Shown: positions 30,001-45,000 of the stretch, piece after piece | Layout: each line of letters begins with the position of its first letter | How positions within the stretch are numbered: the stretch's first letter is position 1 | Made by a program: the position numbers | Source: an uncultured Planctomycetota bacterium | GTDB lineage: Bacteria; Planctomycetota; Planctomycetia; Isosphaerales; Isosphaeraceae | Reading direction: 5' to 3' | Length of the DNA stretch: 64,000 bases | Assembly: GCA_963737655.1 (NCBI GenBank) | Contig: CAVTTN010000002.1 | Location: forward strand, 6,144,001 to 6,208,000

Positions 30001-33000
30001 GACGAGGTTTTGGAAGCCCTCTGGGCCCTCAACGGGTCGCCGTTCGAGGTCACTCAGGAGGAGTTCCACCGGGTGGCCATCCACAGCCTGTCTCCGGCCG
30101 AGGCGGACGCGGCCTGATCGCTCGCGAGATCGATGGCTTGAGGAGACATCCCGACGATGGACGCGGCCCCCTCGAAGATCGCGATCGTGACCGGCGCCGG
30201 CTCGGGGATCGGACGGGCGGCGGCCCTGGCCCTGCTGGGCGAGGGATACTCCGTCGCCCTCGCCGGCCGGCGGCCCGAGCCGTTGCACGAGACGGCCGCG
30301 CTCGCCGGGTCGGCCGGGGGCCGGGCCCTGGTCGTCCCGGCCGACGTGACCGACGAGACCTCGGTCCTCAACCTGTTCGAAGCGACCCTCCGGGCGTTCG
30401 GCCGGCTCGACCTGCTGTTCAACAACGCCGGGACGAACCTGCCGGCCACCAGCGTCGGCGACCTGACGTTCGAGGGGTGGAAACGGGTCCTCGACGCCAA
30501 TCTGACCGGGGCGTTCCTCTGCTCTCGCGAGGCGTTCCGCCGGATGAAGGCCCAATCGCCCCGAGGCGGGCGGATCATCAACAACGGGTCGATCTCGGCC
30601 TACACGCCCCGGCCGGGCTCGGCCCCCTACACGGCGGCCAAGCACGCGATCACCGGCCTGACCAAGAGCACGGCCCTGGACGGCCGCCCGTTCGACATCG
30701 CCTGCGGCCAGATCGACGTCGGCAACGCCGAGACGCCGATGACCGCGAAGATGAAGGACGGCGTCCCCCAGCCCAACGGCTCCACGGCCGCCGAGCCGAC
30801 GATCGACCCGGCGCTCGTGGCCCGGGCCGTCGTCTACATGGCCAGCCTCCCCCTGGAGGCGAACGTCCTCACCATGACGGTCATGGCCACCAAGATGCCG
30901 TTCGTGGGGCGGGGCTGAAGTTCCGAAAAAAGCCGCACTGCCCCCTTGCATGCGTTCGGCGACACCATTAGAAGAGTCCTGCTCTCGACGAGAGGCAAGG
31001 GTCCGGGAGGACAGGTCTAGCTCGGTGCCCTGCACCGGGGCGGCGTTGCGCCGCCCGAGCGTTCGGCCGGTCATGCGTCACAACGAAGGCTGTTTCAGAC
31101 TCGCTTCTCGGGGGAATTACCCCACCGGGGCCTGCGGGTCTGGAGCAACCCCGCCGATCGGGGTTCCGCAGGCCCCGGTGGGGTAATTCCCCCGGCGAGT
31201 CCGAGAGCCTTCGATGTCCCAGGTCTTGAAGTAGAGCGGCCTCCCCGACCCCGATTCCGTGCGAGGCGGGCCGGACTCTCCCTCCGGCCCGCCTCGTCTC
31301 GGGTCGATTTTCGACGAGTCGAGATGAAGTTTGACGAAATTCGGACGGGGCCCTTGCATGCGTGTCCCGGCATCATTAGAAGAGTCCTGCGCTCGACGAG
31401 AGCAAGGGGTCCGGGAGGAGAGGTCTAGCTCGGTGCCCTGCACCGGGGCGGCGTTGCGCCGCCCGAGCGTTCGGCCGGTCATGCGTCACAACGAAGGCTG
31501 TTTCAGACTCGCTGACCGGGGTGATCACGACCCCTACGGCGGCGGGTCTGGAGCAACCCCGCCGATCGGGGTTCCGCCGCCGTAGGGGTCGTGATCACCC
31601 CGGCGAGTCCGAGAGCCTTCGATGTCCCAGGTCTTGAAGTAGAGCGACCTCCCCGACCCCGATTCGTCGCGGGGCGGGCCGGACTCTCCCTCCGGCCCGC
31701 CTCGCGTCGGGTCGAACTGCCCGACACGTCTCCCGACCTTCGAGGCGAGGAACCGGCCGTGAGCACCTCGATCCGCCTGGACGAAGTCCGTCGGGCCCTG
31801 GAGGCGAGGGACCCGGCCCTGATCGACCTCGTCGTCGAGCTCGCCGGGTCGAGCGACCCGGAGCCCGAGACCCCGATCCGCGAGGGCGCGCCGACCTTCG
31901 CGAAATTCCTGGCCGAGACCCGCTCCCAGGACTTCCGCCGCAAGCCCCGACCCGAGCAGGGCATCGAGCGCCAGGCGAAGCTCAAGGCCCTGGAATCGCC
32001 GGACGCCGAAGTCCCCCTGCCCGACCGGCTCCGGCTCCACGAAGTCCTCGCCGCCCTCTGGAAAGACGACGGCCCGTTCGCCCGCCAGTGCCTGCTCGAC
32101 ATCATCGCCCGAATCCCCGCGCGATACGGCCCGTGGAAGGCGCTCAAGAGGATCTTCAAGGAGGCCCAGGCGAAGGGGGACGACGAGATGTTCGCCGCCC
32201 TGGCCGCCCGGTTCGACTCGGCCTATGCCGAGCACCAGACCGAGGTCGGCAAGCTCACCCTCGCCTACCTCCGCCGGAGGGCCTGGCGGCACCTCCGCCG
32301 GACCGCCGAACGCCTCCCGGCCGCCTATGCGGACCTCGCCGCCGACGTCCTGGCCCGATACGACGACGGGACCCAGTGGGCCAAGACGTGGGTCGCCAAC
32401 CACATCCTGCTTCATGGCGGCAAGGGCTACGGGCGCGGGGAATTCGGGTACACCGGGGCGATGTCCACCGGCAACTTCACCAAGTTCCGCGCCTATCCCG
32501 AGCTCTGGAAGCGGACGCCCCGCCCCCTGTTCGGCCTCCTGGAGCGGTCGCGGAACGAGAGGGCCCGGCGGTTCGCCAGCATGGCGCTGAAGGAGGACTT
32601 CCGCGCCTCGCTCCGCGAGGTCGAGCCCGGATGGGTCGCCCGGCTCGTGGCCGTCCGCAGCCAGTCGGTCGATCAGTTCGTGGTCTGGGTCCTGTCGAAT
32701 GTCCCGAGGTTCGAGCAGGCCGCGTTCCGCGCGCTGGGGCTCCATGAGGCGGTCCTCCGCCTGTTCGATTCGCCGTCGGACGAGGCCCGGACCTATGCGG
32801 CCGGCTACGCGCGGACCCACTCGCGAGACTTGCCCGTCTCCCGCCTGATCGAGCTCGCCGACAACGACAACGACGACGTCCGCCGGCTCGCGGCCGACCT
32901 CCTCGGCGACCTCGACCCCCGGAAAGATGTGGGCCTGGACGCCTGGGGCCGGCTCCTGGAGACCGAGAACGGCTCGAAGCTCGCCGCCGACGCCATCCGC

Positions 33001-42000: not shown

Positions 42001-45000
42001 CCCGCGCGACACGTTCTCGCTCAAGCCGATCGACCTGTATAACGCGCTGCGATATCTGCGACTGCACGCGGACAAGAAAGGCCAGCGCCGGGGGCTGAGG
42101 GTCGAGCTGATGCCCGGGCAGCCGCCCCGGCTCGTCCTGGAGCCGTGGAACGAGGTGATCCCGGCGACGGCCGGGCCGTACAGGGGCAAGTCCTCGCGGG
42201 TGGCGCGGGTCTGGGGCCGCCGCCGATTGATGCTCATGCAACGCTTCCTGCCGTTCGTGGAAGATGTCGATGTCCACCTCCTGGGCAGCGGCCTGCCGAG
42301 CTTCTGGGTCCTCCGGGGGCGGGGGATGTCCTTGACCCTCGGATTGACCGGCTTCACGGCCGCGAACTGGTCCCAGGCGCTGAACTTCGACCTCCTCCTG
42401 CCGCGAAAGGCCGAGCCGGGCGGGAAGGACCTGGAGGCGGTCCTCGCCCACCTCGCCCCCCGGTGGTCGGCCGGGGCCGGCGAGCTGGCGAAGGCCACGA
42501 AATTGCCCTGGCCGAAGCTGGTCGAGGCGCTGCAACTGGGCTGCCAGCAAGGCCGGATCATGTACGACATCGCGGCCGACGTCTATCGGTTGCGCCCTCT
42601 GACCGACGCCCCGCTCGACCTCTCCCGGCTGGAGTTCCGCGACCCCCGCGAGAAGGTCGCGCATGACCTGCTCGTCCGCCGGGGCGCGGTGACGATCACC
42701 GGGGAGAACCGCATCCCGGGCTCGGGGCTGGAAATCACCGGGAAGGTCGTGGTGGACGAGGACCGCCGCGAATATCGGCCGCAGATGCTCCTGGCCGACG
42801 AGGGGCAGGTCGCGAAGGCCGAATGCACGTGCTCGACGTTCCGCAAGCAGGGCCTGAAGGGCGGCCCGTGCGTCCACCTCGTCGCCCTCCGGCTCGCCCT
42901 GGCCGCCCGGGAAGCCCGGAGGGCGTCGGGCTCCGAGCCGGCCGACGCGATCACCGCCGAGACCCGGCTGTTCAGCCGCCGCGACCCGTCCGGCGAGGAC
43001 GTGGTGCAGATCACCCTCGACCGCCGCCGGGTGAAGTCGCGATGGGGCCGCGCCGACGGCCCTTCGCGGCTCCAGACGCTCACGTTCGACTCGACCGAGG
43101 ACGTGCGCGGGGCGTACCTCGCCCGGATCGCCGACCTCGACGCCCGCGGATTCCTCGACGCCTCGGCCGGATGAGACCCTCATGGCCACTCAACGCACCA
43201 CCGACCCGCTGACCCTCTGGCGAGCGATCGTCCAGGCCGGCGGCATCCCGTCTTATATCGATGCGCAACTCGCCGAGCGCGGCTTCCTCGTCGCCCGGCG
43301 AGAGACCGACGGGATGTCCGAGCGCGAGCTGGCCGAGTACAAGAAGTCGCTGAAGGCGGAGGCCGCCGAGAAGGTCCGCCTCCGGCGCGAGGCCTGGGCC
43401 GCGTATCGGGCCGAGCACATCGTCTACCTCGGCGACGGCATCTACTGGAAGGACGACCCCGGGCCCGACAAGTGGGACCACCCGAAGGCCGAGGAGCGGG
43501 CCGCCGAGAACGAGCTGCCGCCGCTCGACTCCCCCCGCCAGCTCGCCGAGGCGCTCGGGCTGACCGTCGCGCAGCTCCGCTGGCTGGCCTTCCACCGCGA
43601 CGCCGCCCGGTCGATCCACTACCGGCGGTTCACCATCCCCAAGCGAGACGGCTCCGAGCGCGCCATCTGGGCCCCGATGCCCCGGCTGAAGGCCGCCCAG
43701 CGCTGGATCTTGTGGAACATCGCCGAGAAGCTGCCGGTCCACGGGGCGGCCCACGGCTTCCTCCCGGGCCGCTCGATCCTCTCGAACGCCGCGATCCACC
43801 GGGCGCCGGACCTCGTGGTCAAGATCGATCTCAAGAACTTCTTCCCGACGGTCTCATGGAGACGCGTCAAGGGCCTGTTCCGGAGCGCCGGCTACCGCGA
43901 GCACGTCGCCACCTTGCTCGCCCTGCTCTGCACCGAGGCCCCTCGCGAGATCGTCGAGGACGAGGGGAAGACGTATTTCGTGGCCCTCGGCCCGCGATGC
44001 CTGCCCCAGGGCGCGCCCACCAGCCCCGCGCTCACGAACACGCTCTGCCTCCGGCTCGACCAAAGGCTCTCGGGCCTCGCGAGGAATCGGGGCTGGCGCT
44101 ACACCCGCTACGCCGACGACCTCACCTTCAGCCGCCCGGGCGATGCGAAGGGCCCGCCCGGGATCGGCCGTTTGCTCGGCTCGGTCCGGAGGATCGTCGA
44201 GGGGGAAGGGTTCGCCGTCCACCCGGGCAAGACCACGGTGGGCCGCACGGGGGGCCGGCAACGGATCACCGGCCTGGTCGTCAACGGCGACCGCTCGCCC
44301 CGGCCCACCCGCGAATTCAAGAGGAACCTGAGGGCGGCGATCCACAACCTCGCCGCCGGGAAGGACGCCGAGGGCGGCGAATCCCCGGCGGTGCTCGCCG
44401 GCCGCGCCGCGTTCGTCGCCATGACCGAGCCCGAGCTCGGCCGCGCCCTGCTCGATCGATTGAACCGGGCGCTCGAAGCCCGGGCGCCGGGGCTTCGAAC
44501 CCCTAGCTCGACCTCATCGGCCCGGGGCGACGGCCTTCTGGAGGCCGGTGACGACCTCGGCCCCCGGGGGCTCGCAGATCCTCGGGACCGCCAGGCGGAC
44601 GCCGTGGTCCCGGAACTTGACCAGGGGGGACTCGGGGAAGCTCACCGCCACGTCCGGGTTGCCGGGTCGGAAGCCGTGGTCCAGGGCCCTTTCCTGGACC
44701 GCCTGGGTCATCAGGAACTCGAGGAACCGCCGCGCCTCCTTCCTCTGCGCCTCCGAGCTCCAGGGGACGTCCAGGACGTAGTAGGGGTGGTCGTTCCACA
44801 CGTTGGGATCGGCGTAGATGACCTGGAGGGAGCCGGCCTCGCCCCACTTCGAGAGGGCCTTGTCGATCGAGTCGATCGCGAGGTTCTCGTACACCAGGAC
44901 GCAATCGAATTGCGAGGGGCCCTTGTTGACCATCTCCTTCATGAGCGTCCCGGTGCTCGCCGTGAGCGAGCCCGAGGGCCGGGTCAGCCGGGATTCGAAC

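Follow-up and report, generated by a model that had tools for sequence, protein, structure and literature searches.

The present study describes a variant of the type XIII retron in which several template RNAs are split from their reverse transcriptase (RT). It lies in a 64,000-nt stretch of DNA (the window) from an uncultured Planctomycetota bacterium of the Isosphaeraceae, and judged on its sequence, the locus is very likely a split, multi-template retron. Two msr-msd units stand in tandem upstream of a + strand operon ordered HEAT1, HEAT2, clamp/SWIM partner and RT. The second unit ends 11,520 nt before the RT start, in agreement with a preliminary description that had placed two tandem copies at the operon head, 11.5 kb from the RT. 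That description had also seen no space for an ncRNA next to the RT. Indeed, there is none on either side, since only 7 nt separate the SWIM stop (43174) from the RT ATG (43182) and the convergent kinase gene 3′ of the RT ends at 44514. RNA and RT are thus not contiguous, either here or in Nannocystis exedens (5.6 Mb apart), and therefore the locus represents a split variant and not a canonical cassette.

Two tandem msr-msd units

The units belong to a 300-nt direct repeat (30929-31228 and 31337-31636; 86% identity, spacing 408). Copy 1 (30995..31254, +; 247 bits with covariance model R1) has an a1 arm ending at 31019 and an a2 arm starting at 31232, a predicted priming G at 31020 within TAGC, msr hairpins at 31024-31036 and 31038-31056, a predicted msr/msd overlap near 31072-31084 and a predicted first copied base at 31231. 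Its variable msd stem (31109..31194, +) is a perfect 29-bp inverted repeat, with arms at 31109-31137 and 31166-31194 around a conserved apex of 28 nt. Copy 2 (31403..31662, +) has its predicted priming G at 31428 and first copied base at 31639, and its perfect stem of 30 bp (31516-31545/31574-31603, +) differs in sequence from that of copy 1, as had been claimed. Apart from these 29-30-bp stems, the two ~260-nt units are the same. The exceptional fold reported for copy 1 was recovered (z = -9.0) and extends to copy 2 (z = -10.6), with none of 100 shuffles as good in either case. No third copy was found in the window's genome.

Retron ncRNAs are defined by a1/a2 arms leading to a priming G (commonly TAGC), one to three msr hairpins and a long msd hairpin, and TAGC or CAGC priming together with an 8-bp, 3-nt-loop msr hairpin are regarded as RT determinants (Simon 2019, PMC6868368). 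The present RNA has this anatomy: its a1/a2 arms end at the TAGC guanosine, the msr forms two hairpins, the msd stem is long, and all of these elements show covariation. The compensatory changes noted previously now extend to 63 of 70 pairs, including all 28 stem pairs, over 106 model-fitted copies; in the unfitted alignment of 83 copies, they are seen at 59 of 71 pairs. A pseudoknot between the apex (CTGG) and a 3′ CCAG was considered; these motifs are complementary but nearly invariant and their flanking bases do not covary, and hence it is not claimed.

Each unit would form its own small transcript, consisting of a promoter-like motif, the msr-msd and a 3′ hairpin. The repeated promoter-like stretch that had been described before each copy is TTGCAT-N17-TAGAAG (30946..30974 and 31354..31382, +). 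A looser pattern, TTGnnn-N16-18-TAnA, which was picked only after the sequences had been inspected, lies 5′ of 72 of 105 copies versus 3.9 in shuffles; a strict sigma-70 promoter and terminator scan called none. GC-rich hairpins follow copy 1 (31262..31296, +; resembling a 3′ end or terminator, though no U-tract was called) and copy 2 (31660..31714, +), and similar ones lie 3′ of most of the family ncRNA copies displayed.

Linkage of the RNA to the operon RT

The window RT (43182..44506, +, end approximate) carries the motifs NAAIH, YADD and ITG (VTG in the N. exedens homologue) and belongs to RT clade 10 by its RT_XIII score (526 bits vs 315 for the next PADLOC model) and by trees. A quick tree places the 60 operon RTs in a single clade (SH-aLRT 100), within which Gemmataceae cluster, as do most family genomes.

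That the distant RNA is the template of this RT, as the preliminary description held, is supported by where its homologues occur: in the SWIM-RT slot, just downstream of the RT and at the operon head, and together with the operon even when unlinked. In a sister RT clade, a homologous RNA (125-149 bits) occupies the SWIM-RT interval 150-370 nt upstream of the RT in four of the seven lower-identity loci fetched; three of these four show CAGC priming. This clade probably contains Mx162 itself. In the window's clade, by contrast, only 7 nt remain of this slot, and the RNA lies elsewhere, either 11.5-13 kb upstream, downstream (~230 nt or less from the RT in G128 and G296) or unlinked. Planctomycetota have it at the head of the operon; in many Myxococcota it is fully detached.

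Within the family, the earlier count was reproduced: the ncRNA occurs in 28 of 120 genomes, all among the 30 with the window operon's RT. Twenty-nine of these carriers came from the search; the other, G113, has only a ~90-aa RT stub, beside which lie two RNAs. The contigs of the two carriers without ncRNA (G031, G055) begin inside HEAT genes. Ten genomes with two or three copies on one contig were likewise recovered (G032, G033, G034 with three, G046, G047, G048 with one copy cut by the contig end, G054, G098, G113 and G120), and 18 of the 28 have a single assembled copy. Since a nucleotide HMM gave no RNA match beside the Myxococcota operons, whole genomes were searched there. Among 151 genomes, 11 contain the RNA, and every one of these has HEAT1, a full-length RT of the window's group, or both; neither protein occurs in the 140 genomes without it. 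In one RNA-bearing genome (G525), the only RVT_1 match is the operon RT. A check set beforehand on 10 further genomes with a window-type RT, all fragmented assemblies of unstated completeness, gave a strong RNA match in five, a weak one in one and none in four.

Alternatively, the RNA might be a structured RNA or repeat with no relation to this RT, or might serve as template for a WGR-type type XIII RT or for the RT at 719 kb. Its distance from the operon RT (11.5 kb to 5.6 Mb) would fit this, as would an Rfam search that matched no retron family and returned only chance miRNA-type hairpins. However, homologues directly flank the RT in six genomes, WGR-type RTs have an adjacent RNA of their own that scores only 19-31 bits, five control genomes with a WGR-type RT alone gave no strong match, and the 1.5-kb flanks of the 719-kb RT gave none. 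This explanation is largely refuted and very improbable.

In N. exedens DSM 71, a tandem RNA pair at C1:9,284,888-9,285,482 lies 5.6 Mb from the HEAT-HEAT-SWIM-RT operon (at 3.66 Mb), and the nearest RVT_1 match to the pair is 218 kb away. The RNA gene is not tied to one position and can lie as far as 5.6 Mb away. Previously, Ne160 (Retron-Nex1) was described as a duplicated msr-msd locus lacking an RT within 1 kb (Simon 2019, PMC6868368, citing Lampson and Rice 1997), and the title of Lampson and Rice 1997 refers to chromosomal repeats resembling msDNA in this species. The N. exedens pair corresponds to that published description: it is duplicated, has no RT within 1 kb, and shares its chromosome with 16 scattered msd-only fragment sites (E <= 0.005). 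Furthermore, its predicted template (153-154 nt plus overlap) and that of an RT-adjacent second retron (136 plus overlap) fit 160 and 144. While the passage in Simon 2019 assigns no RT to Ne160, the operon 5.6 Mb away now offers a candidate, and going by the published descriptors, it is likely that its RT is the one Ne160 lacks. Comparison by description would also allow the pair to be a third, undescribed msDNA locus, but since both descriptors and the template lengths agree with Ne160, we find this improbable. Our locus and its relatives thereby give the RT-less Ne160 a named candidate RT, and the question of 1997 becomes testable in a cultured strain.

The variable stem and the partner proteins

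The msd stem, previously put at ~27 bp, is actually 29 bp, with 28-30 bp in 77 of 83 copies, and 97.3% of stem cells are paired (106 model-fitted copies). Its sequence, described as unconserved, is indeed variable in a nearly fully paired stem but not wholly free: the ends are conserved, palindromic 6-mers are enriched, and the arms are likewise rich in internal inverted repeats. A variable stem of fixed length occurs throughout the family and is no peculiarity of the window's lineage. Four stem-less copies (L136, L144, L168, L177) are probably assembly collapses, as L143 has NN at its apex. The idea that the stems are spacers was dropped; elsewhere in the same genome, nothing longer than 18 nt matches the window's stem arms.

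Wobble cells, which are not independent events, number 136 G·U versus 5 A·C in the msr half and 9 G·U versus 33 A·C in the msd half. Counted as distinct column types (G·U:A·C), the ratios are 14:4 and 9:19 (Fisher p 0.006); the stem alone has 14 A·C versus 6 G·U (p 0.12). This asymmetry is as would be expected if the msd were selected as DNA. Two Nannocystis genomes have 28 dispersed fragment sites, every one of which aligns to query 86-237 and so falls within the predicted msd. Both observations are indirect clues to msDNA.

Over 24 pairs of copies, identity is 0.90 in the msr, 0.97 in the basal msd and 0.43 in the stem. Both stems are identical in tandem pair L135, and two Nannocystis species retain two distinct units with both stems unchanged; both observations speak against rapid programmed diversification. 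Possibly, the extra copies are neutral: one RNA would suffice, the stem would drift under length and pairing only, and template switching at the inverted repeat would keep it perfect and generate internal palindromes. The single assembled copies, the L135 stems, the internal inverted repeats (as snap-back copying would give) and the described dispensability of the msd region in engineered retrons agree with this. Nevertheless, duplicates retain the msr, basal msd and promoter-like motifs while their stems differ, multi-copy loci recur in separate branches, and both distinct units persist in the two Nannocystis species, which makes neutrality rather doubtful.

As had been noted, PADLOC type XIII models match the HEAT-ARM, SWIM and RT proteins, and PDLC02921 and PDLC02919 match the HEAT/ARM genes upstream of the RT. 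HEAT1 (31759..34992, +; 1077 aa; PDLC02921; HEAT-ARM_XIII, 1137 bits) contains a BRCT-like insert (residues ~636-722), for which Pfam BRCT falls just short of its cut-off (E 7e-4) and a LigA C-terminal match has E 1.5e-7. Its AF2 model is helical, and the fold search gave generic HEAT solenoids only. HEAT2 (34989..41309, +), a WD40-propeller and HEAT protein of 2124-2147 aa in intact relatives, is a second HEAT-ARM_XIII match in three reading-frame pieces. Of the frameshifts attributed to the HEAT genes, two are confirmed in HEAT2 (near 38385 and 38850), but HEAT1 is intact. The RT frame also lacks its own stop and runs to 47327 antisense over the kinase gene. A 1381-aa RT fusion was rejected, because homologues are only 430-449 aa long and, beyond ~44400, the codon pattern becomes that of the antisense kinase. 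The HEAT2 breaks and the RT end are probably assembly indels. The window copy could also be decaying, although housekeeping genes of this genome are broken as well.

The SWIM partner (41306..43174, +; 622 aa; SWIM_XIII, 653 bits) combines a PCNA/sliding-clamp fold (~50-350), a winged helix (~370-435), a SWIM zinc finger and a WGR-like C-terminus (~552-622). Its predicted structure matches the clamp with Z 16.6 (rmsd 2.9, 221 aligned) and WGR-type structures with Z 8.9-11.8 (71 aligned); Pfam SWIM scores above the cut-off, and the fold search gave winged-helix matches. A homotrimer prediction for the clamp domain (score 0.00) was uninformative either way. In anti-phage retron toxin-antitoxin systems, RT-msDNA neutralises a toxic effector; here, no enzymatic toxin domain appeared in Pfam or NCBIfam searches of the operon proteins or in fold searches of those other than HEAT2. 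With no toxic effector domain, host-like GC and ordinary neighbours (SDR, amidohydrolase, kinase), the context lends no support to defence.

The anatomy, the covariation, the link of RNA to RT, the mobility of the RNA gene and the domain folds are evident from sequence. In the mechanism that we infer, from transcription and msDNA synthesis to complex, trigger and output, the RT from the distal operon would bind a diffusible RNA at its conserved msr hairpin (stem of 8 bp, loop of 3 nt), prime from the 2′-OH of G31020 or G31428, and copy ~153-161 nt into a branched msDNA. Recognition resting on the msr and msd ends would explain how the RNA gene can duplicate and move to the canonical slot, downstream, to the operon head or megabases off. 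One RT would serve one to three templates and make several msDNAs, each folding into a hairpin in which conserved ends flank a perfect 29-bp duplex of free sequence. This duplex may be a DNA mimic gripped by sequence-independent DNA-binding modules (clamp fold, winged helix, WGR, BRCT) on HEAT scaffolds, serving as a tripwire for foreign DNA-processing enzymes, and different palindrome-rich stems would broaden the range sensed. We hold the tripwire function as plausible, at somewhat less than an even chance.

A housekeeping function in sensing or repairing DNA damage, with the partners as a PARP/clamp-like DNA-end-binding machine and msDNA as standing ligand or regulator, would suit the clamp, WGR-like, BRCT-like and winged-helix modules without a recognised toxin, the genome-like GC and neighbours, the RT tree clusters and the vertical inheritance noted for type XIII (Mestre et al. 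2020, PMC7736814). However, the operon is patchy (30/120 family genomes, 3/400 in the phylum sample), low-GC and non-planctomycete carriers suggest transfer, and other characterised retrons in the literature consulted are defensive; we consider this role unlikely. Equally speculative is that a whole branch of type XIII retrons uncoupled template from enzyme, keeping a chromosome-wide bank of exchangeable msr-msd units. A ruler-length, palindrome-rich 29-bp duplex would then be threaded by the PCNA-like clamp, each added copy being a new DNA bait, and the N. exedens operon at 3.66 Mb would be both the missing Ne160 RT and the source of retroposed repeats. The first retrons to be discovered belong to type XIII, for which the literature examined offers no mechanism; a variable-sequence, fixed-length duplex beside clamp-fold, WGR and BRCT partners provides a concrete model.

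Comparison with known systems

Type XIII corresponds to RT clade 10, its two-HEAT variant to clusters 259, 1688 and 114, and its covariance models to firmi, Ne144, Mx162 and Mx65 (Mestre et al. 2020, PMC7736814). Our locus resembles the two-HEAT variant in its RT_XIII, SWIM/winged-helix partner, two upstream HEAT/ARM genes and msr-msd architecture, but differs in having the ncRNA apart from the RT, in one to three copies with different stems. For the N-terminal half of the SWIM partner, our clamp model contrasts with the DEDE transposase-like motif proposed in the same paper. The locus is also akin to the Retron-Mxa1 (Mx162)/Retron-Sau1 (Sa163) class, for the sister RT clade shares the operon and a homologous RNA with stems of 29-34 bp, and CAGC is the priming motif of Mx162 and Sa163 (Simon 2019, PMC6868368).

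In the literature searched, which covers few subscription papers, the sentence on Ne160 in Simon 2019 is the only mention of a distal or duplicated type XIII ncRNA; the supplement of Mestre et al. might list such RNAs. In the text of a retron census supplement (43,598 characters, possibly without sequence tables), four motifs and two taxon names were all absent. As retrons are defined and mined as contiguous RT-ncRNA cassettes, within 500 bp of the RT in that census and within 10 kb in the SPIRE survey, both would miss such RNAs.

The arrays of UG27, a prophage-borne class 2 unknown-group RT that has sORF and bORF partners and units of ~150 nt (bioRxiv 10.64898/2026.09.22.753630), similarly pair one RT with several structurally conserved RNAs whose sequence-diverse hairpins are copied to cDNA. 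In contrast, ours is a chromosomal type XIII retron with HEAT/SWIM partners, whose RNA has a1/a2 arms and a priming G, each of its one to four units having a promoter-like motif of its own. Multitrons (bioRxiv 10.1101/2023.07.17.549397) likewise supply several templates per RT, but they are synthetic engineered arrays whereas the window locus is natural. A natural system of one RT and several templates with a replaceable 29-bp stem is thus relevant to retron engineering.

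Two msr-msd units at the head of the operon

The two tandem units of the preliminary description were recovered as a direct repeat of 300 nt (30929-31228, 31337-31636; 86% identity), inside which lie perfect inverted repeats of 29 bp and 30 bp that differ from each other in sequence. The msr, the basal msd, the apex and the 3′ tail are 100% identical between the copies, whereas the stem arm is only 56% identical. Against shuffled sequences, the fold z values were -9.0 (copy 1) and -10.6 (copy 2). Downstream on the forward strand follow HEAT1 (31759-34992, intact), HEAT2 (34989-41309, broken into three) and the SWIM gene (41306-43174), and then, from 43182 on, the RT; a PADLOC type XIII model is the best match of each. 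There is indeed no room for an ncRNA beside the RT: 7 nt precede it, and a convergent kinase gene follows. That gene (44514-47144, reverse strand) adjoins the RT end, and its product joins a Ser/Thr kinase to a solute-binding domain (Pkinase, SBP_bac_11). Frameshifts had been ascribed to both HEAT genes; two breaks exist in HEAT2, and none in HEAT1. Since relatives are intact and housekeeping genes of the same assembly, including alaS, metG and one gyrB-like gene, are also short-framed, errors of assembly probably account for the two breaks and for the RT's lack of a stop. An exact 22-nt direct repeat and an imperfect 50-nt inverted repeat at 29548-29716 are probably a host REP-like element. 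The source genome (G000) carries a second, distant retron-type RT on a long branch (C2:719262-720260, locus L004, 44% identity) and an RT fragment (C2:4064750-4064977, locus L006).

Each unit has a1/a2 arms, two msr hairpins and a long msd hairpin, the features taken as criteria for retron ncRNAs from the accessible text of section 6 of Simon 2019 (PMC6868368). The arms end immediately ahead of the TAGC guanosine (31020 in copy 1, 31428 in copy 2). The second msr hairpin has 8 bp in its stem and 3 nt in its loop, and the predicted template spans 153 nt up to a conserved CACAAC, together with an overlap of a few bases. In a structure-free alignment of 83 copies (3 of 86 candidates were omitted as gapped or rearranged), two-sided changes occur at 59 of 71 pairs, in keeping with the covariation claimed earlier. 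When 106 copies were fitted to a covariance model derived from that alignment, the figure was 63 of 70 pairs, against 32-40 in slid controls. The distal stem, measured alignment-free in the 83 copies, is nearly fully paired (2298 Watson-Crick, 13 A·C, 3 G·U and 2 other pairs) and fixed in length as described, but at 28-30 bp in 77 copies rather than the proposed ~27 bp; one copy each gave 26 bp and 36 bp, and for four the method gave none. Its sequence is unconserved in the central 21 nt (mean pairwise identity 30%), but not at its ends. Palindromic 6-mers are enriched in 69 declustered cores (44 versus 28.0 ± 4.5), a count reached by none of 400 dinucleotide shuffles.

RNA tolerates a G·U pair; where the RNA has an A·C mismatch, its reverse-transcribed strand has a G·T pair instead. 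The cells with G·U and A·C numbered 136 versus 5 in the msr half and 9 versus 33 in the msd half. Counted as distinct column types, the ratios were 14:4 and 9:19, respectively (Fisher p 0.006); the variable stem by itself gave 14 A·C and 6 G·U (p 0.12). This asymmetry supports an msd that works as DNA, and falls short of proof because the kin are not independent.

Association of the RNA with its RT

As had been reported, the ncRNA occurs in 28 of 120 family genomes, all within the 30 having the operon RT, and in two to three copies in ten of them; where a single contig covers both, it lies 11.5-13 kb upstream of the RT. In G063, a second copy of the ncRNA's 3′ end (tail and a2 arm) immediately follows the unit (region L095:5300-5360). 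A HEAT1 search gave 137 loci, and among the best 80, taken as named loci, an ncRNA heads the operon in Paludisphaera, Singulisphaera, Tundrisphaera, Tautonia, Gemmataceae and Novipirellula, and in one Desulfobacterales and one Gammaproteobacteria record. Seven of these 80 loci (L122, L135, L136, L143, L145, L159 and L165) have two to four copies; in the Gemmatales record (L136:120-9919) four are scattered through 10 kb upstream of HEAT1 and not tandem. Cultured carriers with two copies include Limnoglobus roseus and Singulisphaera sp. PoT. In two genomes (G128, G296), the ncRNA lies directly downstream of the RT, preceded by a TTGACT-N17-TATA(C/A)T motif.

The 60 operon RTs all fall into a single clade (SH-aLRT 100, quick tree). 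Its sister clade (G755, G765, G745 and G775; RT identity 49-53%) has related SWIM genes, and HEAT genes too where the contig extends far enough. Its members carry a homologous ncRNA (125-149 bits) in the slot between SWIM and RT, with CAGC priming in three of four and stems of 29-34 bp. We take this RNA class to be linked to Mx162 itself. Because of the homology, the priming and the stem lengths in the sister clade, the ncRNA is placed in the Mx162-like class, and its fixed-length variable stem is family-wide rather than special to this lineage. CAGC is the priming motif given for Mx162 and Sa163 in the accessible text of Simon 2019 (PMC6868368).

Next to WGR-type type XIII RTs lies an RNA of their own, to which the ncRNA model gives no more than 19-31 bits. 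A check set beforehand on 10 further RT carriers gave five strong matches, one weak and four none, and five control genomes with a WGR-type RT alone gave no strong match. By these genomic associations, the ncRNA is the cognate of the operon RT.

In one subclade, the slot used by the sister-clade ncRNA is occupied by an RsmH-family methyltransferase gene (G113, L093:14458-15354; TIGR00006, 290 bits, above cut-off). The same ~1-kb SWIM-RT gap is seen in L080, L082, L083, L085, L087 and the named Tautonia records L137 and L149. In G113, the RT is cut off after ~90 aa (L093:15399-15671); the other three genes remain, as do two ncRNA copies, both intact.

Detached RNA genes in Myxococcota and a likely link to Ne160

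Among the best 80 of 137 HEAT1 loci, no ncRNA was found near the operon in Myxococcota, yet whole-genome search of operon-bearing Myxococcota detected it in 5/5. Of 151 Myxococcota genomes, 11 have the ncRNA; HEAT1 and a full-length RT of this group were each found in 10. Each of the 11 carries HEAT1 and/or the RT (that of G635 being of the sister clade), and neither HEAT1 nor a full-length group RT was found in the 140 ncRNA-negative genomes. The ncRNA adjoins the operon in one (G611), is detached, i.e., absent from the whole operon and ~3 kb of flank, in six (G521, G575, G621, G631, G636 and G641), and the other four lie on broken contigs. The gene upstream of the detached ncRNA, of unknown kind, is the same in several Myxococcota (L203, L207, L210), and the following gene (L204, L203, L207) looks cation-efflux transporter-like in translation. 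These shared flanking genes suggest an old fixed site for the detached ncRNA of several Myxococcota. The HEAT-HEAT operon of G636 has as its tail-to-tail neighbour a WGR-type type XIII retron that carries an RNA of its own (L245:1-4934); the RNAs of the operon lie on another contig, 424 kb from each other.

On the 11.27-Mb contig NZ_NETK01000001.1, Nannocystis exedens DSM 71 has a tandem ncRNA pair with different stems at 9,284,888-9,285,482, and its operon RT at 3,662,968-3,664,227; 218 kb separate the pair from its closest RVT_1 match. For Retron-Nex1 (Ne160), the accessible text of Simon 2019 (PMC6868368) gives a duplicated msr and msd, no RT within a kilobase and, as a suggestion, a distant RT. 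The title of the 1997 paper (Lampson and Rice) refers to msDNA-like repeats in the chromosome, and we found dispersed ncRNA fragments at 16 sites in N. exedens and 12 in N. radixulma. All of them fall within query 86-237 (predicted msd ~79 to 238), and none includes any msr. The predicted template is 153-154 nt plus overlap for the pair and 136 plus overlap for a second, RT-adjacent retron, probably Ne144; these lengths fit the two names. The tandem pair matches these published descriptors and is likely to be Ne160. Isolated ~40-65-nt fragments far from the operon (G031, L098:11400-11465; G046, C5:40376-40414; G047, C15:218066-218104) match just the first-copied part of the msd and are possibly retroposed msDNA pieces like those of Nannocystis.

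The extra copies could instead be neutral, a reading to which we give clearly less than even weight; both stems are unchanged between the two Nannocystis species, and one tandem pair (L135) has identical stems.

Possible role and relation to known retrons

In an AF2 model (pLDDT 68), residues ~50-350 of the SWIM protein match PCNA (Z 16.6, rmsd 2.9, 221 aligned), followed by winged-helix, SWIM and WGR-type domains. A BRCT-like insert is present in HEAT1, and HEAT2 starts with a WD40 propeller. Since the length and pairing of the msd duplex are fixed and its sequence is not, these sequence-independent DNA-binding and scaffold modules suit it. Most likely, the RT would take up each RNA in trans and make a branched msDNA of ~160 nt, whose duplex the partner complex would keep as a DNA mimic. 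Phage DNA-modifying or recombination proteins trigger retrons via msDNA. In work on Sen2, the toxin was neutralised by RT and msr-msd from a separate plasmid, although there both were together. No effector enzyme was found among the operon proteins and no visible defence island around the locus; thus, both defence, which has a little under an even chance, and the rather unlikely DNA-damage housekeeping still stand.

Taken together, the genomic evidence makes the locus very probably a split, multi-template type XIII retron. Its component parts are already known. In the accessible text of Mestre 2020 (PMC7736814), a two-HEAT variant is listed along with four RNA models for type XIII, and retrons are described as contiguous; the Mx162 RNA model given there may detect these ncRNAs. 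From the accessible parts of other surveys, SPIRE searched ±10 kb, with no mention of tandem copies there or in its supplement, and a census searched within 500 bp; those of Buffington and of a 2021 review do not mention type XIII. In the literature searched, distal or duplicated type XIII RNAs were not described beyond the Ne160 sentence of Simon 2019. In that literature, we found neither an RNA gene free in its position, nor its recurrent duplication with new stems, nor a candidate RT for Ne160. The Minerva preprint, in its accessible part, shows cDNA made from arrays of variable RNAs, but by an RT class unlike the type XIII RT of the window.
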